Shown: positions 13,555-49,268 of the stretch, piece by piece
Layout of the letters: each line of letters starts with the position of its first letter
How positions within the stretch are numbered: the first letter of the stretch is position 1
Source: a phage
Direction: 5' to 3' (one strand)
Length of the DNA stretch: 64,000 bases
Assembly: GCA_027262695.1 (NCBI GenBank)
Contig: GCA_027262695.1_4722.1
Program-made: the position numbers and the translations under genes
The notes under the pieces: model-generated
Told to the model about the DNA's origin: nothing
Databases searched by the model: none
The model's input: the letters and a program-made list of their open reading frames with translations, nothing else

Positions 13555-13570
13555 TATTCGCCGCATAGAA

Positions 13571-13602
13571 CCCTCCTCCAACCCGTAAGGGAAGGAGGAG
13601 GG
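13571..13602. terminator. bidirectional hairpin CCCTCCTCC-AACCCGTAAGGGAA-GGAGGAGGG
   Basis: Perfect 9-bp outer stem with inner CCC/GGG and GTAA loop between convergent genes. Confidence 0.6.
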
Positions 13603-13608
13603 TTTATG

Positions 13609-14676: not shown

Positions 14677-14715
14677 CACGTCCTCCTGAAAAAGAAAAAA
14701 GAAATACGGCATAAA

Positions 14716-14741
14716 GCCTACCCACACAATGGTGGGTAGGC
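14716..14741 (-). terminator. hairpin GCCTACCCAC-acaat-GTGGGTAGGC followed on the minus strand by TTTATGCCGT
   Basis: Stem-loop after stop of 14759..15271; motif at 14706-14715. Confidence 0.55.
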
Positions 14742-14758
14742 TAAGATCAACATCGATG

Positions 14759-15271: not shown

Positions 15272-15783
15272 AGTACACCAGTGTATTGACTGAGTGCGAA
15301 GGTTAGGAGTTCGCAACAGTCTCTCGCTAGTTTCCTTGTTTTGCGTAATCCATAAGCCGCATCCAAATCGTCACGTTCCGCCAGCGCGTCTAACCACGTC
15401 GCAAGTATGCGTCCATACTCGATAACGTCACGCATGAGAACGTCGAACTGGATAACACGACCATCGGCATCAGCAAGCCAACGATTGAATGTAATTTGTG
15501 GTGCTAATATTGCATAGGTTCTCTCCTCTAATGTTATTATGTTTATGTTGCCTTCGTTATCGAACGCTTGATGCCAACGGCGTAGGTCAAGCATCAACGA
15601 CTCAGCATCCATATACCACAACGGTAAATACGTTTTACGTGCAACACGTATATCGTAGATGTTGTGAACCCAGGACGTTGTTTTATAGAGCAACAAGAGT
15701 TCGTTTAACCGTTGCCTATCATCTTGAAACGTCTTCCTTTTATAACGTTGGAAAGCACGCCTCAAGAAAAAGCGATGTAACAT
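15268..15783 (-). CDS. hypothetical protein
   Basis: 171-aa ORF, first gene of a minus-strand operon. Confidence 0.55.
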   Translation of the reverse strand: MLHRFFLRRAFQRYKRKTFQDDRQRLNELLLLYKTTSWVHNIYDIRVARKTYLPLWYMDAESLMLDLRRWHQAFDNEGNINIITLEERTYAILAPQITFNRWLADADGRVIQFDVLMRDVIEYGRILATWLDALAERDDLDAAYGLRKTRKLARDCCELLTFALSQYTGVL

Positions 15784-15851
15784 GGCATCACCTATGTATC
15801 ATTCTTGCAGGTATCAATGATACCGTCACAAGAAGGTAACGTTTTACGTCG

Positions 15852-15875
15852 CCTCCATGACTGTTATCATGGAGG
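15852..15875. promoter_or_regulatory. inverted repeat CCTCCATGA-n6-TCATGGAGG in divergent promoter region
   Basis: Perfect 9-bp arms between minus gene start (15783) and plus gene start (15918); followed by GGTAATATAG. Confidence 0.35.
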
Positions 15876-15917
15876 TAATATAGTCCTGATATTTTTTTCA
15901 ATACGGAGAATAGAATA

Positions 15918-16532
15918 ATGAGCGAATACGGTGTTGTCCCCGTAGATGATGAACCGCAAGAGGCACCCGATAAATTCGAGGTCCGTCTCGATGAAACTCG
16001 TAACATCCGTCAACGATTTATTCAGCGTCTTGAAATGCTGTTAGATAGCGAATTCAAGGAATTTGAGCATAATCCCGGTGCGGATAATAAAGCCATCGTT
16101 GACGTAGAAAACGTCGACCGAATCGGGAAACTATTGCTGAAATCGTTGGGTGATAATGATAAAGTCGACTTAACGCTGAAACGTATTAGTGCTGACCAGG
16201 CCATGAACGACAGCGCATTGAAAACAGCGCAGGCCCTAACCGAAACCATGCTGCGCCGCTTAGGTCAGATGGATCAACATCCTCTCGCAGCAGGGGCTGT
16301 TTATGATGGCGAAGTCGTGCAACCGGTTACACCGGAAGAGCGCGATCGTCGACTTGGTTTTGCGTCGTTGGAAGAATTCGACAGCAAAGAGTTTTCACCG
16401 GGTATTCTCATCCAGGGACGTGTTGAAGAAACCAGCGATGCTTTTTACGCTAGAATGGCTCAACTGACGGCGTCGGTTCGTGAAGAGGTGTCTCAGCAGA
16501 TGACTGCTGAGGACGCACGCGAGGGGGAATAA
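15918..16532 (+). CDS. hypothetical acidic protein
   Basis: 204-aa ORF; AT-rich upstream region with GGAG. Confidence 0.55.
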   Translation: MSEYGVVPVDDEPQEAPDKFEVRLDETRNIRQRFIQRLEMLLDSEFKEFEHNPGADNKAIVDVENVDRIGKLLLKSLGDNDKVDLTLKRISADQAMNDSALKTAQALTETMLRRLGQMDQHPLAAGAVYDGEVVQPVTPEERDRRLGFASLEEFDSKEFSPGILIQGRVEETSDAFYARMAQLTASVREEVSQQMTAEDAREGE

Positions 16533-17229
16533 AATAACTGAACCATTTTATTCCAAAGAACCGCATGAACATCACGGGTGCGTTAGAAAGTTCAATCGCT
16601 TCGTAAAGTTGATCGTAAGCCAGATCGGAGTCAGGAATGGTTTCGCTGATCCGTCTGGCTACCACCAATACGTTACAAATCGGATTATCTTCCAACAGCA
16701 TTTGATTCGGGAGATGCCAACGTTTGAAATCGTAAAAGAACATCGCGTTATACGTTTTACGGATTTCTGCGGGATGCATCGTCGCCGGATGACGGTAGAT
16801 AATCTCGACGATATCTTGCGCACCGAGATACTGTTGAATACCCTCTTTTAACGCAACAGCTGCATCACCGACAAACTCAAACGGGTATGTGTTGACATGA
16901 ACCGAAAAATCCGGCGATGCGATACCGGTTAATCGATCCTTCATGTAATCCGCAACCACATAACACAACCGCCACATTAACTCCGTAGGAATGCATTTAT
17001 CGAGAATGGTTTCGTCAATATTTGCTAACGCGTTCTTAAACTCCTCGTAGGTGTAGTTTACTCCCGCCTGTTTCTCAGGTTCCAGGTTATAGGGCCTGTA
17101 ATGCCATTTCTTTCCCCACTTCCTGATCGCTTCTGGATCCAACGTTGTCGCTACTGCCATCTCAATGTCGAGCAGCGCTTCGAGTTCGACATAAACCGTA
17201 ACATACGCTGCGCTTTCAATCATCATCAC
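16450..17229 (-). CDS. hypothetical protein
   Basis: 259-aa ORF; 3' end overlaps convergent gene 15918..16532 by 83 nt; 5' end overlaps upstream gene by 4 nt. Confidence 0.5.
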   Translation of the reverse strand: MMMIESAAYVTVYVELEALLDIEMAVATTLDPEAIRKWGKKWHYRPYNLEPEKQAGVNYTYEEFKNALANIDETILDKCIPTELMWRLCYVVADYMKDRLTGIASPDFSVHVNTYPFEFVGDAAVALKEGIQQYLGAQDIVEIIYRHPATMHPAEIRKTYNAMFFYDFKRWHLPNQMLLEDNPICNVLVVARRISETIPDSDLAYDQLYEAIELSNAPVMFMRFFGIKWFSYFIPPRVRPQQSSAETPLHEPTPSVEPF

Positions 17230-17927
17230 TCTCCAGTATTACCCGTTAGCATCTGCGCGTCAGGCGACGTTGCCATTTTCTTCTCGTACTCTTTGGTTTG
17301 TTTGAAGACCAACTCACCGATTTCTTCCAGTTCTTCAACGGTGACGGTATGCAAATAGAGTAGCGGAATAATCCAGGTGTTCGCATTAAGCATGTCGCGG
17401 ATATCATCAACGGATGGGAGTTCGGTAAAGAACTGTTCATCAACTGCGAATAAATCCCGTGCGATGCCGTCAACGAGTTTGTGATTGCTTTCATGGATCC
17501 ATGCGAAACTTTCAGCAAGATGTTCCACGAGCATTTTAATATCATCGTCCGTTGAGAACACCGTACGACGAACATGCGTTGTAAGATCCATCGTGAATCC
17601 CATCAGCGAAGGGGTATCCTCAGAACGGAGTTCGCGCCACAAACGAAGCATGTTTTCAGGGATAAACAAATCATGGATAAAGGTGACACTGAACTTCGTC
17701 ACCCAATCTCGAATCGTCGCGCCTTTCGAATACTGTTGCGGCGGGGAATACAAATACACCCAGCGTTTTGTATACGCGATGACTTCCTTTCGCATCATCG
17801 CATCTAAAACAAGCACATAACGATCGGAAGCAAGTTCTTCCAATAAAAGCTCGAACGCCGTATCGCTTTCTGGAGAGAACGATCGTTTGATCTCTGCAAT
17901 ACGTCGTGATAACGAACTACGTAGCAT
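17226..17927 (-). CDS. hypothetical protein
   Basis: 233-aa ORF in operon. Confidence 0.55.
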   Translation of the reverse strand: MLRSSLSRRIAEIKRSFSPESDTAFELLLEELASDRYVLVLDAMMRKEVIAYTKRWVYLYSPPQQYSKGATIRDWVTKFSVTFIHDLFIPENMLRLWRELRSEDTPSLMGFTMDLTTHVRRTVFSTDDDIKMLVEHLAESFAWIHESNHKLVDGIARDLFAVDEQFFTELPSVDDIRDMLNANTWIIPLLYLHTVTVEELEEIGELVFKQTKEYEKKMATSPDAQMLTGNTGE

Positions 17928-28979: not shown

Positions 28980-28996
28980 GTAATATAGCCGTGAAA
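28980..28996 (+). promoter_or_regulatory. conserved 17-mer GTAATATAGCCGTGAAA (candidate promoter element)
   Basis: Identical 17-mer recurs at 43715-43731; the 9-nt core GTAATATAG recurs at 15875-15883. Confidence 0.35.
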
Positions 28997-29948: not shown

Positions 29949-30022
29949 TTTATGCCGTTAAATAACTGGAATAAGAATTAACAAAATAGGAAAATGGTGT
30001 GAATATAACACAAAGGAGGGAG

Positions 30023-36539: not shown

Positions 36540-37628
36540 ATGAGCGACCTGGCAACAGACAATCGCACAAAAGGGAGTCAGCTAGCTCCAGACAACAACG
36601 TAAGCGTTTTCCGTATCTATGCCTTGGGTACTGTTGCTGCCGACTTTTCCAATAAAAGTCTGGAGGAAGATCCTAACCAAACGCTGGAGGTCTTTCTTGA
36701 TGAGATGATGTCAGGCGCTGATGGGAAAGTTGAAGCGGCGGGAAGCGTTAAAGAAGTCAGTGCAACAGACGCTCAAGGGAACAGTTATACGGCGAAAGCG
36801 GCAACAACAACCAGCGTACAGTGTTACTGGTTACCTTTCGGTAGTAACCGGATGACAGCACCTAACTTGAGGAAAGGTCAGCGTGTGGTGGTCTGGCGTA
36901 CTGCTGATGAAGAACAACTCTATTGGCAGCCCAAAGGAGGGGATAGTGAGCTGATGACCATGGAATCGGTTATCCTCACCGTCAGCGCACGTCCTAGCGC
37001 TAAGAAGGACCGTAAATCGATTTCAACGGAAGACTGCTATTACCTAATGGTTGATACCTTTCTTAAGAAAGCGGTTATCGGTACAAGCGCACAGCTTGGT
37101 GAAGTTACCCAAGTCTACATGGAACTTAATCTGGACGAGGGTTACCTACAGGTTGCGGACAGCGTCCATCAAAATCTGCTGTTACTCCATTTCGTTGAAC
37201 ATATGCTGCGTTATCAAAACCAGGACGACAGCATCATCGACGTGACAAAAAAGAACATCACATTCCAGTGCGAGGATACGCTCAAAGCCATCGCTAAGAA
37301 CGATATCCGAATGAAAGCAAAAAACATTTATACCGAATGTGAGAACTTCGAGCGTACCAGCAAAACAGAAAGCGTTACGAGTCAGAATGTTTCTTTGAAG
37401 TGTGACCGCTACACCGCGCAAGTATCAGGACAAACCACGTTCAAATGTCCTAATACGGTATTCACCGGAGCTGTAAGCTTCACAGGTGAGGACGGAAACA
37501 CGATGACGTTGAATGGGAACTTCGTACATGTTGCGGGCTCTTGGCGTTCACCAACCGGAACAAACGTATACACCCACGATCATGGTGGTGTAGATCGTGG
37601 TAGCGGTCGTACAGACCCGTTCCAATAA
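36540..37628 (+). CDS. hypothetical protein
   Basis: 362-aa ORF, AGGAGA upstream; isolated plus-strand gene with hairpin 37651-37684 downstream. Confidence 0.55.
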   Translation: MSDLATDNRTKGSQLAPDNNVSVFRIYALGTVAADFSNKSLEEDPNQTLEVFLDEMMSGADGKVEAAGSVKEVSATDAQGNSYTAKAATTTSVQCYWLPFGSNRMTAPNLRKGQRVVVWRTADEEQLYWQPKGGDSELMTMESVILTVSARPSAKKDRKSISTEDCYYLMVDTFLKKAVIGTSAQLGEVTQVYMELNLDEGYLQVADSVHQNLLLLHFVEHMLRYQNQDDSIIDVTKKNITFQCEDTLKAIAKNDIRMKAKNIYTECENFERTSKTESVTSQNVSLKCDRYTAQVSGQTTFKCPNTVFTGAVSFTGEDGNTMTLNGNFVHVAGSWRSPTGTNVYTHDHGGVDRGSGRTDPFQ

Positions 37629-37650
37629 ACAAAAAAGAAATGCAACACAA

Positions 37651-37684
37651 CCTCCTTCCCCGGCCTGATGGCTAGGGAAGGAGG
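37651..37684. terminator. bidirectional hairpin CCTCCTTCCC...GGGAAGGAGG
   Basis: 10-bp stem between convergent genes. Confidence 0.55.
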
Positions 37685-37699
37685 ATTATGGTTTATTTA

Positions 37700-38089
37700 T
37701 TAACGGATTGCGTTTTGGATGATTTCTTTTCCGATCGTAATCAAAGCAGGTATCTGTACTGCGGTTGCGCCTTGATGACGAAACGCGGTCGTTAATGCGG
37801 TATCGATGCTCACAGCACGTCCGTGAAGACGATCGAAATAGACTTGAGTGATAGCAGCGGCATACTCTTTTCGCTGTTTCTTGGTTTGGTTTACCATCGT
37901 CGCACTACTACCGACGATGAAATAAGCGATTAAGAAGAATGCGGCTGACCGTGAGCCGGGTAGAAAGCCTTGGCGTTTAGGAAGCATTTCACAATCACGA
38001 ACAGTAATACTGTTCGTGAGCTTTTCCATGTCGACATGGCATAATTTTGCATAGGTGTGAAGATGATGGGTAAAAGTTGAATTTAACAT
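37700..38089 (-). CDS. small membrane protein
   Basis: Central TM AAFFLIAYFIVGSSATMV; GAGGAAAG upstream. Confidence 0.5.
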   Translation of the reverse strand: MLNSTFTHHLHTYAKLCHVDMEKLTNSITVRDCEMLPKRQGFLPGSRSAAFFLIAYFIVGSSATMVNQTKKQRKEYAAAITQVYFDRLHGRAVSIDTALTTAFRHQGATAVQIPALITIGKEIIQNAIR

Positions 38090-38193
38090 TTCTTTCCTCG
38101 GTTACAATGAGTTCAATGTATGGCGTAAACGTCACAGAACGACGTATAACAGTTTGTTTTGATTTCTAAGGTGTTTCCCTATCTAAGAGTGAA

Positions 38194-38556
38194 TTAAAGC
38201 GTTCTGAAGAGTTCTGTGGCGTTCTCAGCACGTAAACATGCTTCGTTCAACAACTCCGCTAACAACTTCGATCTAACTTCAACGAATGTCCTGGTACGAT
38301 GCTCCCAGTCTAAACGGATGGTGTAAGTATCATCCATGTTTCTGTGGTCAACAACAGATGTTGAACAACGTGTTTCTTGTTTATTCACAGCACTCCAGAC
38401 ATCACGGATAATCGTCATGCCTTTCTTGGTGCACGTAAACGTCAAGATACAACGATTATTCGCTGCTTCTTCACAAACGTGAATAAATTCGCTTCGTAGC
38501 GATGAGGTCTTGGTCAATCGATCGATAGCAAGCGATAACCCAATACGTTGTTGCAT
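38194..38556 (-). CDS. small hypothetical protein (tandem family, possible third member)
   Basis: 120 aa; ILTFTCTKKGMTIIRDVW resembles the core of the two upstream genes. Confidence 0.45.
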   Translation of the reverse strand: MQQRIGLSLAIDRLTKTSSLRSEFIHVCEEAANNRCILTFTCTKKGMTIIRDVWSAVNKQETRCSTSVVDHRNMDDTYTIRLDWEHRTRTFVEVRSKLLAELLNEACLRAENATELFRTL

Positions 38557-38557
38557 A

Positions 38558-38971
38558 TCAAATTCCTTCTTTCAAAATCTCATTAAGGCCGTCTGCAACC
38601 GCGTCCAAATGGGCATCCATATCCGTTACGGTGTCAGCGGTAACTGTCCAGACGTGCTGTATTAATGTCTCACCATTCGTACATTTTACCATTTCCATCG
38701 CCAACTTTGTTTGTCCTGACGATGGTGAGATCTCATTGCTCCGCCAAAACGCAGCCTCGAGTAATGTTTTACCTAACGCTGTACACACAAAAGTAAATTC
38801 TACTTGACCAATACCTACCACCGAAGCGGATAACGGTTGGATATGTTCGCGCAGCTTATCATCTTCACGTAGGAGCAGCAGTGTACGATGTAAGTGTGTA
38901 CGGTGGGTAACAATAGCGTCGTAATGACCGATGCGTACATCGGCTACTGATTCAGGCCAGTTAATTTTCAT
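38558..38971 (-). CDS. small hypothetical protein (tandem paralog)
   Basis: 137 aa; VEFTFVCTALGKTLLEAAFW aligns with LGFVFSQTGKDVLENIFW of 38987..39430. Confidence 0.5.
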   Translation of the reverse strand: MKINWPESVADVRIGHYDAIVTHRTHLHRTLLLLREDDKLREHIQPLSASVVGIGQVEFTFVCTALGKTLLEAAFWRSNEISPSSGQTKLAMEMVKCTNGETLIQHVWTVTADTVTDMDAHLDAVADGLNEILKEGI

Positions 38972-38986
38972 GTTCGATTCCTCGTA

Positions 38987-39430
38987 TTAACACTGTGTTC
39001 CATTCGATAAGCGGGTGGTATCAAAACGATCCAGTTGGTGTACAATGCTATTAGCAACACGATGCAAATAGTGTATTTTGTCCATTCGTGAAATCGCAGA
39101 AATCGTCCAGCAAGCCTCTGACGTCCAATAGGTGCCGTCTTCACTAAGGCTAACGTTATAAACTAACTTCGTCATCACATTTCTCGCCTTATGCTCAGCA
39201 GACCAGAATATGTTTTCTAACACATCCTTCCCCGTTTGTGAAAACACGAACCCAAGCTTCACGTCGAGGTCGGATGCTTCAAGATTAACGAAGTGAAGAT
39301 GATTCTCCAAAGGCGCAAAAGAGGCTAAACGTTCCAGCGCGTTTTGCAGCGTGGGATGATCGAGCTTTTCGAGATCATCCACAGGTTGTTCAGGTACAAT
39401 CGCGATCGATTTACAGAATTTAATTTCCAT
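38987..39430 (-). CDS. small hypothetical protein (tandem paralog)
   Basis: 147 aa; shared core motif with 38558..38971. Confidence 0.5.
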   Translation of the reverse strand: MEIKFCKSIAIVPEQPVDDLEKLDHPTLQNALERLASFAPLENHLHFVNLEASDLDVKLGFVFSQTGKDVLENIFWSAEHKARNVMTKLVYNVSLSEDGTYWTSEACWTISAISRMDKIHYLHRVANSIVHQLDRFDTTRLSNGTQC

Positions 39431-39459
39431 GGTAGGTTCCTCTTGATAGATGGTAGTAA

Positions 39460-39479
39460 CGGGGATACCGCGGTATCCC
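39460..39479 (-). terminator. intra-operon hairpin GGGGATACCGCGGTATCCCC
   Basis: Perfect 20-bp palindrome between two minus genes. Confidence 0.4.
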
Positions 39480-39487
39480 CTAAGTCT

Positions 39488-39958
39488 TTATAACACGCCC
39501 CAAGCCATATTGGGTACAGGCTCGTTACGTTCGATGTAATACATCAAGCGTTCTTTAAGTTTGGTTAACGCCTCAGCAACGATGTTCTCCATGGCAATCA
39601 CCTTTCCAATGTAATCCATGGTATCCTGCCACGTAAACCATTCGACGGTATTGACGATGTAAAGGGTTTCATCGTCGTCGGTCATGACCTTGGCATTTTC
39701 ACGATGATCGCGGGTCGCGTATAACGGTGTTTTTAGATTCGCTCTGATACGTACCCAGAGCTTCTCCAGGAAATCGCTCGGTTGACTATCTGTCGTGATG
39801 ATAAGTTCACTCCGTACTGAACGCTCTCCACGCTTTTCAATAACAAGTAAACCATCGTAAGTGATGTTCATCAAGTTACGAAGGTCATCATTGCTATTCC
39901 AGTCTTTTACAACAGCAGGAAGTTGGCTATTGTACTCTTCAGGTAATCTCTTAAGCAT
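39488..39958 (-). CDS. hypothetical protein
   Basis: 156-aa ORF. Confidence 0.5.
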   Translation of the reverse strand: MLKRLPEEYNSQLPAVVKDWNSNDDLRNLMNITYDGLLVIEKRGERSVRSELIITTDSQPSDFLEKLWVRIRANLKTPLYATRDHRENAKVMTDDDETLYIVNTVEWFTWQDTMDYIGKVIAMENIVAEALTKLKERLMYYIERNEPVPNMAWGVL

Positions 39959-40403
39959 CGGTTTCTGCTCCTATATCACGTTTGAGTTCGGCGACCAGTT
40001 TGTCGTAATGGTCTTTTATCACATTCGCCATAACGAATTGCGCTTTTCTCACTAGCTGCTCATTGGCATCACTGAATGTAAAATACTCTCGCACTTCAAC
40101 CGGATGTGATACGCCACCGATATCGTAGGCTTTATTCGATGTGCGTTGAGCGATCACTGGGAGCGGTTTCGCGGCGTTCAGCGCAGTACAGATTTCCGTA
40201 ACGAGTTCTTGAATTTGGCTTTTCCCTTCGATGATAACGCTGCAACGATAAACATCCACCTCGTTAAGTTGTTCAACAACATCCGCCTTGATTTTGAATT
40301 GACCTACAAGCGCGCTTACTAAAGTGCGGTGCCAATTGTTCACCACTCCAACCAGCAATGGATGATTCTCAAGATCTCTTCTGTTCATTTCTGAGCTCCT
40401 CAA
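39951..40403 (-). CDS. hypothetical protein
   Basis: 150-aa ORF overlapping downstream gene by 8 nt. Confidence 0.5.
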   Translation of the reverse strand: MRSSEMNRRDLENHPLLVGVVNNWHRTLVSALVGQFKIKADVVEQLNEVDVYRCSVIIEGKSQIQELVTEICTALNAAKPLPVIAQRTSNKAYDIGGVSHPVEVREYFTFSDANEQLVRKAQFVMANVIKDHYDKLVAELKRDIGAETDA

Positions 40404-40425
40404 TCGCTCTATAACAAACTTTTAG

Positions 40426-40450
40426 AGGAAGGGAAACATATTCCCTTCCT
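40426..40450 (-). terminator. hairpin GGAAGGGAA-acata-TTCCCTTCC
   Basis: 9-bp stem between 40468..40743 and 39951..40403. Confidence 0.4.
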
Positions 40451-40467
40451 TGAGTTAGTTTATTGCG

Positions 40468-40743
40468 TTATACGTCTTTTCTGTGCGCGTAGAACGCCTT
40501 CGTTCCGTTGTTGATCGCCTCAACCACATCCGGGGTTAACACAACGGCGATATCGCTTCGAGATGACGGTGCGTAATACCCTTCACCGTTCTCGGTAATC
40601 AGGCGATAACGGACTAAGCCTATGTTCGGTTCAACGCGTACCACTCTTTCGAGTTTGTACTTGATGATCTTCGTCAGGCCGATAGTCTCTGATGCGTAGA
40701 TGGCTTTATAAACTTTGTTCTTTGCTGTCGTTTTCATCAACAT
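40468..40743 (-). CDS. small hypothetical protein interleaved in paralog cluster
   Basis: ORF track 40468..40812; internal ATG 40743 chosen to limit overlap with paralog 1 (still 38 nt). Confidence 0.4.
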   Translation of the reverse strand: MLMKTTAKNKVYKAIYASETIGLTKIIKYKLERVVRVEPNIGLVRYRLITENGEGYYAPSSRSDIAVVLTPDVVEAINNGTKAFYAHRKDV

Positions 40744-41599
40744 GGTTTCTGTTTTCCTTGGTTTGTTGTGGTCCCAGGTCGGAGATATCCCAACGGATAT
40801 AACCAACATCACGGATTCGCTCGGCTGTTTCTTCGGATTGTGGATTACGACTGATAACCGGTAGCCATTCCCCTTCTCGGGTTATCTTAACTTCGGTGAT
40901 CTGTAAGCTCATGTTCCAACGAACGTCATAAACCAGCGCGTAACCAAGAGGATGAACAAGCCCATCTTGGTTATACATCTTCAAAAGACCTCTTACATCT
41001 TCGCTACGAAGTGATTTCATGGCTGGACGTACGCGTTGAAGTCTCTTTGTGATATCGTATCCCAACTTAATATCCTTCCAACCCGTCATGACGTAAGGAA
41101 CAACGTTGCGGCGACGGAGTTGATGGTTGTGAGTGGTTTCTTCGGCGGTAAGATGTACCCAACCGAGATCGCTGTACGCCACGAACCGCGCTCCTTCTCC
41201 ATCGAGCACTGTGTGCTCATCTAACGCTGCTGCAACACCATGGCCTGCGTAATACGACGGAAGAACGTTCAGCATTTTAATACGGCTTTCTTGACCGGTA
41301 TGGTCAGGGTCGATATGCGCGTAGTAATAATTACGGCTTACCGGACGACCTTCCGCCATACATCCACGGAAGACAGGGTCCTGCATTCCAAGCGGATGGT
41401 AATACGCGAGCTGTTGCTCGTCACCTTCCCCGATGACCAACAAACGATCTTCACGACTTGGTGTGCTAGGATCTTTCACCGTGATGTAGGTAACAATCAC
41501 TTTCAGATTGTCTAAAATGTCCTGTGGAAGTTTCTCTAAATCCCGTGCGTCGTAAATACGATTAACAACAACGTTTGCAATGTGTTTTGGTAAGCTCAT
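40706..41599 (-). CDS. member 1 of triplicated ~270-aa paralog family (unknown function)
   Basis: Shared motifs LAYYHPLGMQ, SDLGWVHL, HPLGYALVYDVRWN, GYIRWDISDL; unique C-terminal extension. Confidence 0.6.
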   Translation of the reverse strand: MSLPKHIANVVVNRIYDARDLEKLPQDILDNLKVIVTYITVKDPSTPSREDRLLVIGEGDEQQLAYYHPLGMQDPVFRGCMAEGRPVSRNYYYAHIDPDHTGQESRIKMLNVLPSYYAGHGVAAALDEHTVLDGEGARFVAYSDLGWVHLTAEETTHNHQLRRRNVVPYVMTGWKDIKLGYDITKRLQRVRPAMKSLRSEDVRGLLKMYNQDGLVHPLGYALVYDVRWNMSLQITEVKITREGEWLPVISRNPQSEETAERIRDVGYIRWDISDLGPQQTKENRNHVDENDSKEQSL

Positions 41600-41644
41600 T
41601 TTAGATCTCTCTTTGTTATCGGTAAAATAAATAACGGCATAAAT

Positions 41645-41660
41645 GGGACATAACTGTCCC
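41645..41660 (-). terminator. hairpin GGGACA-taac-TGTCCC followed on minus strand by TTTATGCCGTTATTTATTTT
   Basis: Between paralog 2 stop and paralog 1 start; motif at 41633-41642. Confidence 0.45.
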
Positions 41661-41679
41661 CGTGTTAAATATCAACTGT

Positions 41680-42522
41680 TCACGCTTTCAAGTCTGAAAT
41701 ATCCCAACGTACGTAACCTGTACGCTCAATGTCGTCAACCAGTCGCTCGGTTTGATTTTCAACGCCAACGACGGGCACCCAATTTAAACGCCAGCGTCCA
41801 CCGACATTAACCTCAACACGCTGCAGATCTTCATTCCAACAAACCCCATTCGGTCTCAAAAAGCCCATCGGATGGATGTAGTCCTCATCGTAATCTTTCA
41901 ATAGCGCGAGAATATCGCTTCGGCTATAAGTCTTCACGCTTGCTAGATGTACGCTTTGTAGCTTATCACGCAGACCCCAACCGTACTCACTATCACGCCA
42001 TTCAGGCATGACAACCGGCAGTACATTCCGATGACGGATGTATTTTGCCGCTTCAGCAATATCAGCTGGGAGATGTATCCAACCTAAATCGCTGTTAGCG
42101 ACAAAATCAGGACTATCCATTTCATGGATGTAACGATCGTAAAGCGTAGCAGCGAGTCCTTCAGCAAGCACGTTTGTTGGAAGGAGGCAGTTGGCGCTTA
42201 TCTTGAAATCGAATACATCGGCATCAGGATCCACGTATGCGTAAAACCCGCGCGCAAAAGCACCGCCATGCTCTTTGAAGTAGTATTGGAACACAGCGTT
42301 TTGCATTCCGATGGGGTGGTAGTAAGCCAACACACGTTGTTCGCCGTCCGTGATTTCAATGAGCCGATCTTTCGGCTTCGGCCAGGTGATCTTCTCAACA
42401 TCGCAAACGCTGACGATCTTTCGTAGATTCACCTTGATATGTTCCGGGAGATGCCCGATTTCATTTTCATGATAAACACGGGTGATGACGTGATGAATAA
42501 CAGATTGTGGTTTAGCTGTCAT
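41680..42522 (-). CDS. member 2 of triplicated paralog family
   Basis: LAYYHPIGMQ, SDLGWIHL, HPMGFLRPNGVCWN, GYVRWDISDL. Confidence 0.6.
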   Translation of the reverse strand: MTAKPQSVIHHVITRVYHENEIGHLPEHIKVNLRKIVSVCDVEKITWPKPKDRLIEITDGEQRVLAYYHPIGMQNAVFQYYFKEHGGAFARGFYAYVDPDADVFDFKISANCLLPTNVLAEGLAATLYDRYIHEMDSPDFVANSDLGWIHLPADIAEAAKYIRHRNVLPVVMPEWRDSEYGWGLRDKLQSVHLASVKTYSRSDILALLKDYDEDYIHPMGFLRPNGVCWNEDLQRVEVNVGGRWRLNWVPVVGVENQTERLVDDIERTGYVRWDISDLKA

Positions 42523-42554
42523 TTGACGTCTCCTTTTCGTTTGTTGGTGATGGT

Positions 42555-42854
42555 TTAGGGTTTAGGTTCCGTTTTGTATTGTGCGAGTAATGCGTTGATC
42601 TGCTCCCGTTGTTCTTTTAAGCATGTGGGAAGCTGGTCTTCCCGTACCGTTCCGATTTCCAACGTGATGTACCAACGTTGTTCGGAAGCCTGCCATTGAA
42701 AACTGCTCTGTAACCGAAGGATGTTGGGATCGCGTACCTTGCTTGCGCTGTAGCGATCGAACCAATCCAGATAAGCGGCTTTTCCTTCCTCGTCGGCAAC
42801 GTAACGCTGCACGCTGTTCTTGCCTTTGTTCTCGTATCCCGTGATGCGGATCAT
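42555..42854 (-). CDS. small hypothetical protein interleaved in paralog cluster
   Basis: ORF track 42555..42908; ATG 42854 overlaps stop of paralog 3 in ATGA arrangement. Confidence 0.45.
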   Translation of the reverse strand: MIRITGYENKGKNSVQRYVADEEGKAAYLDWFDRYSASKVRDPNILRLQSSFQWQASEQRWYITLEIGTVREDQLPTCLKEQREQINALLAQYKTEPKP

Positions 42855-43627
42855 GCGAACGTTTCTCCTGTAACGTGTTGCGGATAGCGTAGCATGGTAA
42901 CATCCCATTGTACGAATCCCTGCTGTTGGAGTTGTTGCATAACCGCTTCAACGTCTTGTCCTGGATGCGCAACCGGCAACCAACGTGTATCCAGCACCTT
43001 CGCTTCAAGGCGGGCTTTGCGCTTGTTCCAACGTACCTCGCTGATCCATGCGAAGCCAAGCGGATGCACCACCTGCGGGTAATGCACGCGCAGCAGGTTC
43101 TTCATCCGGCGAAGGATTGCAAGCCTGGCGTCAAGCGCGTATGGTTTCACCTGGTTAAGCTTGCGGGTGTAATACGTTCCCACGGTTTGGTTCGCCCAAC
43201 CAGGAAGCGCATGATGGGACCCAGCCTGCAATGTATTGTCCCCGTTCGTCTTCAACCAACCGTATTGCCCTGCCGCACGTCCTTTCTCATGTTCAACTTG
43301 TACCAGCTGATCGATGAACGAAGCATCAACGATACCGTGATCCACCTCATCCAACGCATAGCGCACCACCAACCCGCTCGCGCTCATCCGTGCGGGATGC
43401 TGGCTCCGATGCGCGTACCAAACCCTATTAACATGCAGCCGAGAAGGATACGTGTGTGCGCCACGCCAAAACACTTTTCCGAGAACACGTTCTCCACAGT
43501 ACACCATCACCCCTTTGTGATCGATTAGGTAATCCAACACCTTCATGCATTCCGCTTTGATGCTATCCGGTAATGCTAAGTATTCCTCTTCGGTGAACAC
43601 GGTATCAAAAATGATTTCATCGCTCAT
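42851..43627 (-). CDS. member 3 of triplicated paralog family (most divergent)
   Basis: HPLGFAWISEVRWN and GFVQWDVTML align with members 1 and 2. Confidence 0.55.
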   Translation of the reverse strand: MSDEIIFDTVFTEEEYLALPDSIKAECMKVLDYLIDHKGVMVYCGERVLGKVFWRGAHTYPSRLHVNRVWYAHRSQHPARMSASGLVVRYALDEVDHGIVDASFIDQLVQVEHEKGRAAGQYGWLKTNGDNTLQAGSHHALPGWANQTVGTYYTRKLNQVKPYALDARLAILRRMKNLLRVHYPQVVHPLGFAWISEVRWNKRKARLEAKVLDTRWLPVAHPGQDVEAVMQQLQQQGFVQWDVTMLRYPQHVTGETFA

Positions 43628-43639
43628 GGATAAAGTTCC

Positions 43640-44075
43640 TTGTTTTCACGTTGTTTGATTAACGTATTGATTTCTGATGATGATAACATCGATATGTTTG
43701 CTGTTATCAAGAAGGTAATATAGCCGTGAAAGGATTTGTATTACAGAAAGGATATTTGTTTTTAAGAAGGGACGATGGTTATCAGGAAGGAGGTTATCGG
43801 TAGGTGTAGGAGAGGGGATTTCAAGGAAGGTTTAAGAGGATAGTTATGTTGTTTAGTTGAGAGTTTGCTAAAATAGCTTTATCGTTATCTTAGTTTATCT
43901 GTGTATTCGTTAGGTATCTTGATTTATCTTCTTAATGATCTTTTCAAAAGTGTTATCATGGTTATCTTAGGTTATGTCTTAATTGTTTTATCTTGGTATG
44001 TTTAAGTTGTTTTAAGTTATCTGTTTATCTATCTTGTTATCTTGTTTAAGTTGTTAATGGCTTATCTTCAAAACA
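43640..44075. repeat. AT-rich non-coding region with purine-rich (A/G)GAAGG repeats (about 43700-43850) and at least 8 TATCTT iterons (about 43880-44070)
   Basis: No credible ORF; copies such as GTTATCTTAG, GGTATCTTGA, TTTATCTTCT, GGTTATCTTAGG, TTTATCTTGG, GCTTATCTTC; TGTTTAAGTTGTT twice. Confidence 0.6.
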
Positions 44076-44085
44076 ATGGATAACA

Positions 44086-44131
44086 TGTGTTTACTACGCT
44101 CGTTGAGTTATAACTCAACGGTAACACATGT
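44086..44131. promoter_or_regulatory. composite palindrome: perfect 20-bp CGTTGAGTTATAACTCAACG flanked by inverted ACATGTGTT / AACACATGT
   Basis: 44101-44120 is its own reverse complement; flanking arms extend the dyad imperfectly. Confidence 0.45.
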
Positions 44132-44535
44132 CATCTGTGCATTACACTACGTTACATGCTTATCAACGTTTTGTGAAGACAAAACGTTCAACTCTAAAAA
44201 ACCATTTGTGATACTCTTCTTCACGTTGTTCATCAGAGTATCTCGTCTATCCTCACTGCGTTCGCATACGACATCACCGTTATACGCTAACGCTACGCTT
44301 ATAGCTTATAACTCTAAGGATAAAAACATAAACTCGCTTCGCTCGTTTAGTTTTTCTTTTTCTTAGAGTTATCATGTTGCTCGTCTCTAAAGGACTTCGC
44401 TCCTCCCCCGTCCCCCGAAGGGGCCGAGGTCGTGGAAATTTTACTTTCCAAATACATTTACAACGTCTGTAAACTTTTACCGACACATACCTAATCTTAT
44501 ATTTAAAATTAGAAAAAGAGAAAATACGAACATAA

Positions 44536-44566
44536 CCCTCCTCCAACCCGGAAGGGAAGGAGGAGG
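44536..44566 (-). terminator. hairpin CCCTCCTCC-AACCCGGAAGGGAA-GGAGGAGG
   Basis: Same family as 13571; after stop of 44585..45478; followed on minus strand by TTATGTTCGTATTTT. Confidence 0.6.
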
Positions 44567-44584
44567 TGATAACAGTCTATTTAA

Positions 44585-45478
44585 TTAATCGGAAGTGTTA
44601 TAACCGAATACTGCTTTACCGTAGGTGTGAGTACCATCACTGAGTGACAATACTAATACGTGGTTATACGCATCGTTAACACCCTTGTCGGTAGAATCGG
44701 TGGTAACACCGTTGTAGACAAAGGTAGCTGATTGCAGATTGGTTTTCAGTTCATTGATGATATCATCACTTACACCAGTCTGCTCTTTAATCAGAGTAGT
44801 CAGGTTACCTGCTAAGCTTGCGTCGAGATTTACTTCGTTGCCAGTAATAGCTTGTAAACCTGAAGCGTAAGTACTGAAGTCTAACGGATAGGTTAACAGA
44901 CGTGCTGACGTTTTGGTACCATTGCCTTCATCAACGTAGGTTAAGTTACCCAGGTTGGTAACCTTGATAATGTTAGACAGATCCAGCGTTGTGTTATAAA
45001 CTTTAACTTGAACAGAACCATACCAAGCCAACGAATCTTCTTTGGCTTCCAGGGTAACGGTTTGGATACCTGACTGATCAAAGGTAACGGGATTAGATAA
45101 CGTTTCAGCTTTGATGTCTTTTGTTTTATCCAGGAACTTCTCGCCGGAAGGCGTAACCATACCGTAGCGTTGAGCTACGAGGTCGACCACGTCACCGATG
45201 GTGGTGTTTGCTTCAACACTAACGCGCACCGCGATCTTCTGGAACCATTTAGCCAGATCCAGACGATGATAGGTGACATCGCGGGTATTGAAGTACGGTG
45301 TACCATCACCCGGACTGAGTGTTAATGTTGCTGCACTATCAGAATCGCTTTTGGATTTAAGAACGTATTTGAGATCAGTGTATTTGAAACTGGCTCCCGT
45401 ATCGGCGTTAAGCTGGTTGATCTCATCAACGATAAGTTGCCACGGTGTTTTCAAAGTAAGTGATACTCGACTTGACAT
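44585..45478 (-). CDS. structural-region paralog family member A (YYDR-YG-LAWTGSV family)
   Basis: VTYHRLDL, LVAQRYGMV, LAWYGSVQV. Confidence 0.55.
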   Translation of the reverse strand: MSSRVSLTLKTPWQLIVDEINQLNADTGASFKYTDLKYVLKSKSDSDSAATLTLSPGDGTPYFNTRDVTYHRLDLAKWFQKIAVRVSVEANTTIGDVVDLVAQRYGMVTPSGEKFLDKTKDIKAETLSNPVTFDQSGIQTVTLEAKEDSLAWYGSVQVKVYNTTLDLSNIIKVTNLGNLTYVDEGNGTKTSARLLTYPLDFSTYASGLQAITGNEVNLDASLAGNLTTLIKEQTGVSDDIINELKTNLQSATFVYNGVTTDSTDKGVNDAYNHVLVLSLSDGTHTYGKAVFGYNTSD

Positions 45479-45514
45479 TTTTTTACCTCGATGGTTGTTA
45501 CATCACTCTCAAAA

Positions 45515-45562
45515 GATGTAAATGTTTACAGAAAATAATATATTTTATATTTAATGTAAATG
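45515..45562. promoter_or_regulatory. direct repeats ATGTAAATG (x2) with TGTAAA-tg-TTTACA inverted repeat in AT-rich divergent promoter
   Basis: 45515-45523 and 45554-45562; inverted repeat 45517-45530. Confidence 0.35.
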
Positions 45563-45620
45563 ATATGGAGAACGACTCCGAATCTCCTTTTCGACCATCA
45601 AAATCAGAGGACACACAGTC

Positions 45621-46163
45621 ATGGCCTTAGACTTTAACAAAGCAGCGAAATCCCTTCTGCTCGATCTTATCAACACCAAAGCAACTCGCACACTGACCGA
45701 AGAAGAACTGCAGTTCGGTACTCCGGGGGCATCTTCCGAACATTCTAAGAACACCGTTATTCAGCTGGATGCTGCGGATGAAGCAGAAAACCTGCAGGGT
45801 ACTCAGCAGTTCTACTACGATCGTCTGGCTCTATCTGACGTTTTCGCTGATGTAACCGGCGATGTTACTTTCGAACTGCCGCACGGTACTGAAAGCATCC
45901 AGGCTTCCGAGCTGGTAAGCAAGCTGGTCACCAAATTCGGCCTGGCTTCCCTGACCGGTGAAATCAAAGAAGAAACCTTCCAGCTGTCTGCAGGTACTGT
46001 TGGTCAGGTAACTCTGAGCGCGATCGAGAACGGTCTGGTATATACCGGCACTCTGCAGGTTGCTCTGACCTATGCAGCAGCACCGAAAGACGAACTGGCA
46101 ACCGTTCTGGCGAATAACGTAGCTGAAGGTTTCGTGAAACCTGAAGTAGCTGTCGTTGGCTAA
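45621..46163 (+). CDS. paralog family member B; strongly codon-optimised, probably very abundant virion protein
   Basis: FYYDRLAL, LVTKFGLA, LVYTGTLQV; near-exclusive CTG/GGT/CGT/ACC/TTC codon use unlike neighbours. Confidence 0.65.
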   Translation: MALDFNKAAKSLLLDLINTKATRTLTEEELQFGTPGASSEHSKNTVIQLDAADEAENLQGTQQFYYDRLALSDVFADVTGDVTFELPHGTESIQASELVSKLVTKFGLASLTGEIKEETFQLSAGTVGQVTLSAIENGLVYTGTLQVALTYAAAPKDELATVLANNVAEGFVKPEVAVVG

Positions 46164-46172
46164 TAAGCACGT

Positions 46173-46213
46173 AGAGCAATAGTATGGGTTTTGTACAGCT
46201 CGGCTATTGCTCT
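46173..46213 (+). terminator. stem-loop AGAGCAATAG-n21-CTATTGCTCT directly after stop of 45621..46163
   Basis: 10-bp perfect stem; further hairpins downstream in a ~290-nt 3' region. Confidence 0.4.
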
Positions 46214-46362
46214 TCTACAATTTGGTTGTAACAATCTGCGTGGTTGCACGCTTATCTTTCTCATTGAACGCTTCGTATGATGCGTGGTGTTGAAAGGGTT
46301 GTGGATCTCCTCAAGCGGCCAGGGACCCAGACCAACCTGAATAAACACAAACACATGTTAAG

Positions 46363-46394
46363 CCCCTCCTCATCCGTTATTGGGTGGGGAGGGG
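46363..46394. terminator. bidirectional hairpin CCCCTCCTCATCC...GGGTGGGGAGGGG
   Basis: Between convergent genes 45621..46163 and 46458..47093. Confidence 0.5.
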
Positions 46395-46457
46395 TCTTAT
46401 ACGTCTTTATGCGTTCCGTTCGTTCTGGAGCGTTTTAGAACGGTTTACGACAGGGTT

Positions 46458-47093
46458 TTATTCAGCACTGAAACCGTTCAAACGGATAGCTTCGTAACGT
46501 TTACGTTCACGACGTTTACGCGCCTGCCAACCGTAAATGAACTTCTCGTCTTTCTCACGACGTTCAGCTAATTCGATGTAATACATGCTCTGCATATCCA
46601 GCATCGCGTCGATAAGGTAATCTTTACCTTGCTCGCCACGTTTTGCGATATAAGCGTCCAACGCACCTAAGGTTTTAGGTCCCATCCCACCATCAGCGTC
46701 AATATCTTTCCAGTAAGTTTGACGGTTGTTCATGACGTTGAGGTAACGCTGGAGGTTCTTAACGGCAACGGATTTGCCTGCATTGATACCCAGATCAAAG
46801 AGACGGTCAGCTAAGAACACGGAACGCTTCATGACGTCATCAAGCTTCATCTTATCCCAGAAGTGGGTTTTGTAGATGAAGAACGCCATGTCGTAGGTCA
46901 GATTGCGCATATTACCATTCCAACCGAATTTCGTTTTCAGCGTGGTTTTGTATTGATCGGCGAGCGCTTTCGTAATTCCCATCATGGTTTCATTACCGCT
47001 GTCATCTGGGTCGTTGACGTATCCCGCCTCGATGTTGGTTTTATCACGAATGATGAATTCGCAGGTAAAATCTTTTTCAGTAATCTTGGTCAT
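46458..47093 (-). CDS. endolysin, GH108-like muramidase with PG_binding_3-like C-terminal domain
   Basis: EAGYVNDPDDSGNETMMGIT matches the GH108 motif (EGGYVNDP.D.GG.T.GIT); DADGGMGPKTLGAL matches the peptidoglycan-binding motif. Confidence 0.8.
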   Translation of the reverse strand: MTKITEKDFTCEFIIRDKTNIEAGYVNDPDDSGNETMMGITKALADQYKTTLKTKFGWNGNMRNLTYDMAFFIYKTHFWDKMKLDDVMKRSVFLADRLFDLGINAGKSVAVKNLQRYLNVMNNRQTYWKDIDADGGMGPKTLGALDAYIAKRGEQGKDYLIDAMLDMQSMYYIELAERREKDEKFIYGWQARKRRERKRYEAIRLNGFSAE

Positions 47094-47185
47094 TAGAACT
47101 CCTCGTTTAGATAACGATTTAGAGGAACAGGAAGGCCCTAGAACGCGATAAACGATTTAAACCAGGCAAACCCTAGATTAAACTT

Positions 47186-47199
47186 TTCGAAGCGTTAGA
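47186..47199. promoter_or_regulatory. perfect palindrome TAGAACGCGTTCTA upstream of endolysin gene
   Basis: Related TAGAACG / CGTTCT words also at about 47138, 46411-46432. Confidence 0.35.
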
Positions 47200-47219
47200 A
47201 CGCGTTCTAGAGCGTGAAA

Positions 47220-49268
47220 TTAAATACCCTTGGTTCCTTTCACGCGGTGCGCAATTTCTTCAACCATTGCACGCAAGGCACGAAGCTGTTGGTCGTGTTC
47301 GTACCAACCGCCTAACAGAACCCCGCTATACACCATGGTGTCCAGACTTAACAGTCCTTTATCTGATACGTTGATCATTTCAGGGAACTGTTCTTGTACA
47401 CGTTGTGCGATAACACCGATCTTCTCAACATCAGGATCGTAGTCGTGACGGAAACGGGCAAGCCCGGTGTATGCCATTTCACGTAAACGATCACTGAAAG
47501 ATTCTGGATGGTCTTTCAGATAACGGATGTCGTGTTTACTACGCTCATCTGAACGGATGTATGCGTTAGGAACATCGATGTTGCTGTTGAAGTACAACGC
47601 GCTACCACCACCTGCAGAGTTACCCCAATAGAAGCTAGTAAGAATGCTACCGCCATTACCTGTAACATGCACGGTGCTTCCCACCCTCGTTCCACCGCTA
47701 CCATCAACGAAGACCAGTTTGTTTCCGCTGTAAGAACCCCAGAACAGACGACTATCGATGATGTTGGTTGCGGCGAGGCGGGCGTTACGTGGTGTAGAAT
47801 AGACGGTGTTGATATCTTGCTGCGCCTGTGCGTCAGAAGCGATACCGTAGTTCTGCACATTACCTAAACCTACTTGGGCTTTTGTAACAGCGTGAGGGTT
47901 GTCTCGACGGTTAGCGTGATTGTTAACCAGATCGCCCGCCAATTTCTGAATTGCCCAGTTGGTAGACTGTGGCGTCATGTAACGGTTAGTTGCAGAACCA
48001 CCTTGCGCCTCAGCTTGGTTAGCGGTTGGGTAGTTCTCAACGCTTCCTAACCCTACTTGTGCCTTAGACACTTGGTGCGGGTTATTCTTGTCGGCAATAT
48101 GTGCATTAAGCGGAACTAACGCGAAGGTCTCGATGGACGCTTTGGTTGTGTTCGGTGCCATTAATCGGTTAGCTGCAACCCCAGCACGTGCTTCATCCTC
48201 CGAAGCCATCGGATAGTCTTGCACATTACCTAATCCTACCTGCGCTTTGGTCACCTTGTGCGGGTTGTTGTAATCGGTTTTATGTGCGTTAAGCGGAATC
48301 AATGCGAATTGTTCAATCGCTGCAACGGTACGTAGCGGCGTCATGAATCGGTTATTCGCTGTTCCGTCCTTCGCCTCGCTATCCGAAGCGGTCGGGAAGT
48401 TATCAACGTTCCCAAGGTTAACCTGTGCTTTGGTAACGCTATGTGGGTTATCTTTACGATTAGCGTGAGCGTCGACTAGATCCCCACCCAGTTTAGCAAT
48501 CGCCCATCCAACCGTTTGTGCGGTCATGTATCGGTCAGGTGCTGTACCGGCTTCTGCCTCCGCCTTGTTTGCGGTAGGATAGTTCTGTACATTACCTAAA
48601 CCTACTTGGGCTTTTGTGGTTTCGTGCGGGTTATCGGTACGGTTAGCATGCGCGTAATGCAGATCGGTAAGGTCTTTATCCGCCGCTTGCATGTCTTTAC
48701 GTAGCTGATCGATTGCCGCCCAGAGACGGTTATCGGACGCAGCATCACCGATAAGTATTGCGGCTTTCAGCGAATAGATCGCTAAGCAAAGATGTTCGGT
48801 ACCGTAGATAGCACTAACATGGTGGATGTGTGGTTCAGGCGGATAAAGTTCCGGTTTGTTCTTGATGTCGTCCCAGTTGATCGGACGATCGTCAAGTTTG
48901 AGTTCTTCGATAGCCTGATATAACGCGTCAATAAGACTTACGTAAACACCACCGATGATACGATAGTCGTTAATTAACGTCCCCTCGATATCATCGTTGA
49001 TGATGGCGATCGCCGCACAGATTTCTTTACCTGCGTAAAGCGTCGCATCCTGATACAAGAAGATGGGTTTATAATCCACGCCTCGTACCAGTGTCTTACC
49101 GGTAAGCTTTTCAGTGATGACCAGACTTTCGGTAAAGAACGGTCCGCCATCAAGGGCGTAACATTTATTCTCGGTTCGTGGAACGGTATGCTCTTCACCA
49201 ACGATGTGGTTGCTGGCGAGTGTACCGGTCCAGTCCTCGGGGTACTTCAGGGTAATTGGTGTCGACAT
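47220..49268 (-). CDS. tail fibre protein with five NPH..TKAQVGLGNV repeats and C-terminal S74-type intramolecular chaperone domain
   Basis: Repeats about 47846-48656; C-terminal SDERSKHDIRYL...GVIAQRVQE (about 47220-47590) matches the autoproteolytic chaperone motif of endosialidase/T5 pb1-type fibres. Confidence 0.75.
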   Translation of the reverse strand: MSTPITLKYPEDWTGTLASNHIVGEEHTVPRTENKCYALDGGPFFTESLVITEKLTGKTLVRGVDYKPIFLYQDATLYAGKEICAAIAIINDDIEGTLINDYRIIGGVYVSLIDALYQAIEELKLDDRPINWDDIKNKPELYPPEPHIHHVSAIYGTEHLCLAIYSLKAAILIGDAASDNRLWAAIDQLRKDMQAADKDLTDLHYAHANRTDNPHETTKAQVGLGNVQNYPTANKAEAEAGTAPDRYMTAQTVGWAIAKLGGDLVDAHANRKDNPHSVTKAQVNLGNVDNFPTASDSEAKDGTANNRFMTPLRTVAAIEQFALIPLNAHKTDYNNPHKVTKAQVGLGNVQDYPMASEDEARAGVAANRLMAPNTTKASIETFALVPLNAHIADKNNPHQVSKAQVGLGSVENYPTANQAEAQGGSATNRYMTPQSTNWAIQKLAGDLVNNHANRRDNPHAVTKAQVGLGNVQNYGIASDAQAQQDINTVYSTPRNARLAATNIIDSRLFWGSYSGNKLVFVDGSGGTRVGSTVHVTGNGGSILTSFYWGNSAGGGSALYFNSNIDVPNAYIRSDERSKHDIRYLKDHPESFSDRLREMAYTGLARFRHDYDPDVEKIGVIAQRVQEQFPEMINVSDKGLLSLDTMVYSGVLLGGWYEHDQQLRALRAMVEEIAHRVKGTKGI

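Follow-up and report, generated by a model that had tools for sequence, protein, structure and literature searches.

A 64,000-nucleotide (nt) stretch of phage DNA (contig GCA_027262695.1_4722.1 of NCBI GenBank assembly GCA_027262695.1), here called the window, carries on its minus strand a tandem array of three related genes, with two small unrelated genes among them. The three large genes, members 1 to 3, encode a protein family that is early, non-structural, restricted to one lineage and in part dispensable, and its genes are arranged as exchangeable cassettes. The lineage is that of Escherichia phage vB_EcoM_Goslar (Goslar), a nucleus-forming jumbo phage of 237 kb. The overall explanation, to which we give an even chance, is that the array encodes early binders that act on the host or on its defences, a function that we infer from the setting of the genes. 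The main features, in the order of predicted transcription, are as follows.

43715..43731, minus strand: predicted early promoter TTTCACGGCTATATTAC, a ΦKZ-type (virion RNA polymerase) motif
42851..43627, minus strand: member 3, subtype A, 258 amino acids (aa), orthologue of Goslar gp21
42555..42854, minus strand: 99-aa small gene, orthologue of Goslar gp20
41680..42522, minus strand: member 2, subtype C, 280 aa
40706..41599, minus strand: member 1, subtype D, 297 aa including a 22-aa read-through tail
40468..40743, minus strand: 91-aa small gene, orthologue of Goslar gp19

An earlier reading, made by a model from the letters alone (the sequence-only reading), had placed five open reading frames at these positions, and all five are present on the minus strand. 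Its claim that the three large genes are related is borne out by pairwise alignment. BLASTP gives 36% identity over 275 aa for members 1 and 2 (E-value = 3e-58), 27% over 161 aa for members 1 and 3 (1e-13) and 26% over 115 aa for members 2 and 3 (2e-8), and member 3 is, as had been said, the most divergent. The homology is full-length. An hhalign comparison of a type A (member 3-like) profile with a profile of the other types, both built from the sequences of relatives, yields a probability of 99.1% and an E-value of 7e-19 over 239 columns. Four motifs had been described as shared. Two of them, HPxG(Y/F)...V(R/C)WN and G(Y/F)(I/V)(R/Q)WD(I/V)(S/T)(D/M)L, are common to all three members, and these are the C-terminal ones. 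The remaining two, LAYYHP(L/I)GMQ and SDLGW(V/I)HL, are found only in members 1 and 2; member 3 displays VFWRGAH and QYGWLKT there. The small genes are unrelated to the array family and to each other by BLAST and by profiles, and the predicted ATGA overlap, in which the start of the 99-aa gene overlaps the stop codon of member 3, is present. The word triplication, used for the cluster, is misleading: with 23–36% identity the copies are old, and those in the window represent three of the four ancient subtypes and no recent triplication.

The subtypes, designated A to D, occur in the fixed order A-(gp20)-B-C-D-gp19, where member 3 is A, member 2 is C and member 1 is D. The comparison set consists of about a dozen genomes (~12), in which L001 is Goslar and the other L numbers are relatives; an IMG/VR scan gained one further genome. 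Subtype A alone is found in Goslar and in at least four other lineages. Two copies (A-D) are found in two genomes, one from a Shigella flexneri assembly and one from a Salmonella enterica assembly. Three copies are found as A-C-D in the window and a Salmonella Heidelberg contig (L020), as A-B-D in two genomes, and as A-B plus a C/D recombinant, with gp20 missing, in one genome. One genome carries all four (A-B-C-D). The member 3 orthologue is the first gene of the array in every relative examined, and the gp19-like gene, which in the window has a 38-nt overlap with the 3′ end of member 1, is the 3′ boundary of the array in all relatives.

Sequence divergence within the locus is considerable. 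The window is ~91% identical to Goslar in DNA sequence (window 30000–54000 corresponds to Goslar 3581–25248), yet at the array locus itself 39% of the length is aligned, with 83% identity. Member 3 shows 61% aa identity to Goslar gp21 against the ~91% DNA identity of the surrounding genome; the orthologues of gp20 and gp19 show 95% and 89% aa identity, respectively. Member 2 is 74% identical to L008_g4 and 75% identical to the C/D chimera of L004, and member 1 is 83–86% identical to its orthologues in L002, L007 and L008.

The family is confined to Goslar-like phages. A search of 5.8 billion proteins with a three-sequence profile returned 25 clusters, none of them named, and HMMER, run exhaustively on 1.84 billion representatives with a profile of 22 sequences, returned 8 matches. 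The sources of the family matches are Goslar-like phage contigs, or assemblies of E. coli, Shigella and Salmonella in which such a phage is present. The HMMER search found no family homologue outside Goslar-like phages, other nucleus-forming phages included, and a tblastn search of member 2 against 50,697 phage genomes gave no match. Homology to a characterised anti-defence inhibitor is thus very unlikely. The 99-aa gp20-like gene is found in 53 clusters, each at least 80% identical, in Goslar-like phages only, and is missing in L004. Goslar-like phage DNA was also seen in isolate assemblies: L006 (GCA_022679365.1, Shigella flexneri, 235.5 kb), L019 (GCA_016018055.1, Salmonella enterica, 236.4 kb) and L020 (GCA_011633445.1, Salmonella Heidelberg, a 100-kb contig). 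This suggests carriage in, or contamination of, the cultures, and a host range beyond E. coli.

At the array the window differs from Goslar by an indel, which is listed here with its associated features.

40760..42530, no strand assigned: indel relative to Goslar, 1,771 bp, holding members 2 and 1
42531..42549, minus strand: left copy of the spacer repeat, CACCAACAAACGAAAAGGA, upstream of member 2
41646..41659, minus strand: small hairpin GGACAGTTATGTCC (= GGACAnnnnTGTCC) followed by a T-rich run, upstream of member 1
40755..40770, minus strand: right copy of the spacer repeat, CACAACAAACCAAGGA, within the 3′ end of member 1 and coding for part of its tail

The indel is clean and lies within the 40-nt spacer between gp20 and gp19 of Goslar. 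Window positions 40441–40759 correspond to L001 7974–8292 and positions 42531–47500 to L001 8293–13166, which are adjacent in Goslar. A similar ribosome-binding spacer is found at both edges (CACCAACAAACGAAAAGGA and CACAACAAACCAAGGA), and Goslar has a single spacer copy, CACCAACAAGCGAAAAGGA, between gp20 and gp19. Such a footprint is what recombination between short direct repeats would be expected to leave. That paralogues, too, recombine is seen directly in the C/D gene of L004 (positions 2931–3827), which is found in L005 as well. Its residues 1–165 are 83–100% identical to subtype C; from about residue 210 it is nearer to subtype D and ends with the subtype D tail. The gene adjoins gp19, and its array is also the one without a gp20-like gene. 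We propose that whole cassettes are lost, gained and exchanged as the array evolves, by recombination at the repeated spacers and between paralogues.

The C-terminal tail of member 1, earlier described as unique, is real and 22 aa long, and its origin can be traced to read-through into the gp19 start region. The last 17 codons and the stop codon of member 1 occupy sequence that Goslar has too: the ribosome-binding spacer of gp19 and, read in a different frame, the 5′ end of the gp19 gene. Subtype D of L006, L019 and L020 has 277 aa and ends at TGATAA directly after ...DLAS. The hairpin GGACAnnnnTGTCC and its T-rich run are kept directly upstream of all subtype D genes (window, L002, L006, L007 and L008), whatever gene precedes. 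It may serve as a signal for RNA processing or attenuation that moves with the cassette.

The clean indel with its flanking repeats, the frequent loss in relatives and the accidental read-through tail would all fit functionless selfish or decaying passengers, members 1 and 2 being either mobile cassettes or pre-deletion remnants. Such an origin is very improbable. Reading frames are intact for all copies in every genome compared, each subtype keeps its own conserved translation-start spacer, and searches of Pfam, PHROGs and PADLOC show no nuclease, integrase or transposase motifs. In addition, the ratio of nonsynonymous to synonymous substitution (dN/dS) between orthologues is 0.16–0.37 for subtypes C and D, which indicates selection at the protein level.

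The dN/dS values were calculated by the Nei-Gojobori method between orthologues, with sub-regions taken as 40-codon windows. By subtype they are 0.22–0.40 (A), 0.25–0.36 (B), 0.16–0.29 (C) and 0.22–0.37 (D). Both small genes fall at 0.11–0.29, with the gp20-like gene at 0.11–0.26, and the controls give 0.10–0.16 for gp22 and 0.01–0.08 for the endolysin. The array genes therefore encode real, constrained proteins under purifying selection that evolve faster than their structural neighbours, and subtype A is among the fastest-evolving proteins of the region. No gene-wide value exceeds 1 and the highest 40-codon window is about 0.6, so positive selection is not demonstrated. The sequence-only reading had called the paralogs diversifying and the locus typical of host interaction or anti-defence. 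In the sense of positive selection the first term does not hold, the gene-wide values being 0.16–0.40; array diversity is old divergence plus cassette loss, gain and recombination. The second description is supported in part, in that the Goslar orthologues are early-transcribed and absent from virions and that close relatives have 1–4 copies; an anti-defence role would be one possibility.

Evidence of early expression begins with the promoter. The motif TTTCACGGCTATATTAC sits 88 nt upstream of the ATG of member 3. Transcription is predicted to start at the G at 43708, 6 nt beyond the motif, which leaves a predicted leader of 81 nt before the ATG. The core TATATTAC is the promoter predicted for ΦKZ, and comparable extended forms occur in related phages (PMC7058600, Table 2). 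Virion RNA polymerase promoters of ΦKZ-like phages are conserved AT-rich elements with a start 6 nt downstream (PMC5312081). The features of a ΦKZ-type early unit, an AT-rich TATATTAC core and a start-site purine 6 nt downstream, are both found at 43731–43708. The identical 16-mer occurs at 28980–28995 (minus strand), where it heads the operon at 28948 equivalent to Goslar gp004–gp001, and a related copy at 15875–15882 (minus strand) heads the operon at 15783 equivalent to gp200–gp201. Every intergenic copy in the window has a G at the start-site position (N6 downstream). The motif is kept upstream of subtype A in Goslar and five other relatives, and its flanks diverge. One intragenic copy of TATATTAC, at 51550 inside a late gene, has neither the upstream extension nor the +7 G. 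The 8-mer TATATTAC alone is not enriched in the window (4 found, 2.1 expected), and the weight therefore rests solely on the extended motif, its position and its conservation. A scan of 37000–45000 for sigma-70 promoters and terminators gave no excess over shuffled sequence.

The non-coding region upstream of the array has further features. The neighbouring AT-rich stretch, as had been pointed out, has a G+C content of 0.39 (44001–45000), compared with ~0.46 elsewhere in the window, and the array lies directly downstream of it and of the conserved early promoter, in agreement with the regulatory region proposed there. Rfam and tRNA scans of this region gave nothing. Nine co-oriented AGATAA sequences, of 50 in the whole window, are found within 183 bp at 43885–44067 (minus strand), ~160–350 nt upstream of the early promoter in a non-coding stretch of ~950 bp; several are kept in relatives. 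The cluster could be a protein-binding array or a promoter-upstream element. An inverted repeat, ACGTT...AACGT, is found in the predicted leader of member 3 at 43648–43665 (minus strand), within a block, AGAAATCAATACGTT...AACGTG, that is invariant in five genomes while the surrounding leader varies. It may represent an RNA structure or a binding site.

Published data for Goslar allow the predicted unit to be compared with transcription. Normal infection was compared by RNA sequencing (RNA-seq) with a chmA knockdown that arrests infection at the early-vesicle stage; gp014–gp021 were retained in the knockdown (log2 fold change +0.8 to +1.4), and the flanking gp005–013 and gp022–036 fell (−3 to −7) (10.1101/2023.09.20.558163, Sup. 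Table 2). The retained block is exactly the unit between the motif and the terminator after gp14. Read density computed from the published counts is fairly even from gp021 to gp014, at 0.8–1.6 reads per nt, consistent with a single transcript. Retained islands are likewise headed by the other two motif sites; these are gp001–004 and, amid strongly reduced genes, gp200–201. The test was made in the direction from intergenic motif site to early block, and all three sites (3/3) lead to one. In the part of the Goslar virion data available, obtained by liquid chromatography–tandem mass spectrometry, gp19, gp20 and gp21 are absent and the neighbours gp22 and gp23 are among the most abundant proteins (10.64898/2026.04.21.720040, Table S4). 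Early transcription, absence from virions and a copy number of 1–4 are typical of accessory host-interaction genes. Literature and accession searches for Goslar gp21, gp20 and gp19 gave no published function, and all are annotated as hypothetical proteins.

A second explanation is that the family serves the phage's own early programme. It might help to assemble the early-infection vesicle or the nascent nucleus or to make them work, or it might take part in exporting mRNA or in selectively importing proteins. Subtype A would be the required member, with B–D specialised or redundant. Subtype A is in all ~12 genomes and always first behind the promoter, it is translationally coupled to a well-conserved small partner, the gp20-like gene, and the block is co-expressed with genes needed for nucleus building. 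However, the family is absent from all other nucleus-forming phages and is thus not part of the shared machinery. The fast evolution of subtype A (61% aa identity, dN/dS up to 0.40) would be unusual for a component that must fit conserved partners of the phage, and subtypes B–D are freely lost. We consider a phage-internal role rather unlikely.

The proteins themselves display no known domain. With the three members as queries, Pfam gave nothing above the cut-off (E-value 0.1), PHROGs v4 gave a best E-value of 0.046 and the PDB profile search one of 0.068, neither significant, and PADLOC-DB gave no match. The suggestion that this is an uncharacterised family with no recognisable enzyme motif or fold agrees with these searches. 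DUF7941 (PF25613) is found in the neighbours gp22 and gp23 and in no family member. All five proteins of the locus are predicted to be soluble, with no membrane-type segment, and the family has no signal peptide. AlphaFold2 models have a predicted local distance difference test score (pLDDT) of 67 and a predicted template modelling score (pTM) of 0.61 for member 2, and 68.5 and 0.72 for member 3. The member 3 model shows a confident beta-rich N-terminal domain (positions 1–78), a confident alpha/beta C-terminal domain (145–250; pLDDT 75–96) and a poorly predicted middle. An internal duplication, with two HPxG and a DLGW / WDxxDL pair, was considered and rejected: hhalign of the halves aligns only a 6–7 residue motif with a probability of about 1%. 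The first HPxG is absent from subtype A.

Lack of a membrane segment or signal peptide is relevant to a third explanation, competition between phages, in which the family would cause superinfection exclusion or interfere with co-infecting relatives and the subtype sets would be incompatibility groups. In favour are the early expression, the strong divergence of the subtype A alleles, which assort independently of the remaining array, and the difference in cassette content among phages of the same hosts. Membrane segments or signal peptides are, however, common in exclusion proteins that act at the envelope. The family resembles no known exclusion protein, and direct evidence is none. This explanation is distinctly unlikely.

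The explanation preferred here, an array of early binders, can be set out as a sequence of steps. The locus would be the promoter-proximal part of an early transcription unit of ~6 kb on the minus strand, from roughly 43708 to 37690. After injection, a virion-packaged RNA polymerase would begin transcription from the TATATTAC-N6-G promoter at a time when the early-infection vesicle still encloses the genome, and the polycistronic mRNA would then be translated in the host cytoplasm. The products are predicted soluble proteins of 30–34 kDa with small beta-rich and alpha/beta domains and no catalytic signature. They would act as stoichiometric binders of host factors, either in takeover or in neutralising cytoplasmic immunity before the nucleus is built. 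Each subtype would have a target of its own, and the subtype set would reflect the hosts met. We infer polycistronic transcription in the window phage, a cytoplasmic location of the proteins, action by binding rather than catalysis, and targets in the host or its defences.

A stronger form of the binder explanation is tentative and, in our judgement, more doubtful than probable. Here the four subtypes would be combinatorial inhibitors of novel fold, each disarming a different enterobacterial immune or housekeeping factor before the nucleus exists. If this is true, the subset of subtypes helps to set which E. coli, Shigella and Salmonella strains the phage infects.

Several points weigh against the binder explanation. 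None of the results connects the family with a host protein or a defence system. Subtype A is in every genome examined and so possibly serves the phage in a way that is lineage-specific yet important, instead of being accessory. A positive-selection signal is absent, though many anti-defence genes show one. Most Goslar genes are early (175/249 are detected at 5 min, and 146/249 are unchanged in the knockdown), so that early expression says little on function. The RNA-seq and proteomics are data on Goslar and cover subtype A of the array only. The models are of medium confidence (pLDDT 67–68) and a known fold was possibly missed; nor does the lack of a catalytic fold in such models prove a binding role.

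The array is continuous with other genes of the predicted unit, and Goslar gene order is kept on both of its flanks. One flank has a tail-fibre gene and an endolysin-like gene besides gp22 and gp23, which are virion filament proteins of the DUF7941 type. The other has gp18 to gp14, all small hypothetical genes, together with a terminator and a gene for the baseplate. The two remaining features of the unit are given here.

37700..40403, minus strand: rest of the early operon, six small genes equivalent to Goslar gp18–gp14 plus a 156-aa gene
37651..37684, no strand assigned: palindromic terminator, shared with the convergent baseplate gene and matching the annotated Goslar terminator 11186–11220

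The terminator is likely the 3′ end of the operon. Within the same operon, at 38194–39430 (minus strand), is a tandem trio of paralogous genes unrelated to the array family. Across genomes, BLAST groups the gp16-like with the gp17-like genes, and hhalign adds the gp15-like gene (93%, E-value = 3e-7); Pfam gives no match to the trio. A BLAST comparison showed no relationship among the downstream genes, and profiles brought out this family alone. Goslar gp17 and gp18 are found as traces in virions, about 19 and 4 copies, in the part of the virion data available. The window also spans the ends of the linear Goslar record near ~26400. Positions 13500–17300 correspond to Goslar 224312–228127 and position 30000 to Goslar 3581, a spacing of 16,500 nt in the window and 16,576 nt in Goslar. 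These lengths fit a continuous join; thus either the start of the Goslar GenBank record is arbitrary or the genomes are circularly permuted.

The array is of interest beyond its own annotation. After its nucleus has been completed, a nucleus-forming phage is protected from immunity that targets DNA. The field is still working out how such phages live through the first minutes and how they deal with cytoplasmic or RNA-targeting defences. Array content differs between otherwise near-identical phages, and the genes are compact, early-expressed and lineage-specific. Since knockdown, RNA-seq and virion proteomics already exist for Goslar, a tractable model phage, this is a practical place to seek host-takeover or counter-defence proteins. 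The natural variants with 1, 2, 3 and 4 copies are ready-made comparison strains, and the promoter motif could serve genome-wide annotation of early units in Goslar-like genomes.

Among known systems, the closest is Goslar itself. Its gp21 (HOV27_gp021 / QBO63814.1), orthologous to member 3, occupies the same place, follows the same promoter motif and has the same synteny on both sides. It differs in that it has subtype A alone; the window adds C and D as the 1,771-bp insertion between gp20 and gp19. The early units of ΦKZ-like phages are the next comparison. The TATATTAC core with its upstream extension is as predicted for ΦKZ, 201φ2-1, OBP and N1M2, the G 6 nt downstream is as at the mapped ΦKZ and φR1-37 starts, the orthologous block of Goslar is transcribed in the absence of a nucleus, and the predicted 81-nt leader compares with 91 nt reported for Goslar chmA. 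The start in the window is predicted from the motif. The Mop / OB-like small beta-barrel domains (ModG, 1h9j; ModE, 1b9m) are also listed among the closest known systems.

ΦKZ gp014, an early-expressed, host-directed protein of a nucleus-forming phage, binds host ribosomes (PMC11849849). It is like the array family in being early, non-structural, lineage-restricted and without an enzyme signature, and in the binding to a host component that is proposed here for the family. It differs from the family in having no sequence or fold relationship to it, and the multi-subtype array of variable copy number has, as far as we know, no equivalent in the case of gp014. What is new in the window is an unannotated family without recognisable relatives; what is familiar is a set of variable, tandem, early accessory genes in a large phage. 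A tandem family of this sort in a jumbo phage is unsurprising by itself, and its value is that it gives a defined experimental target.

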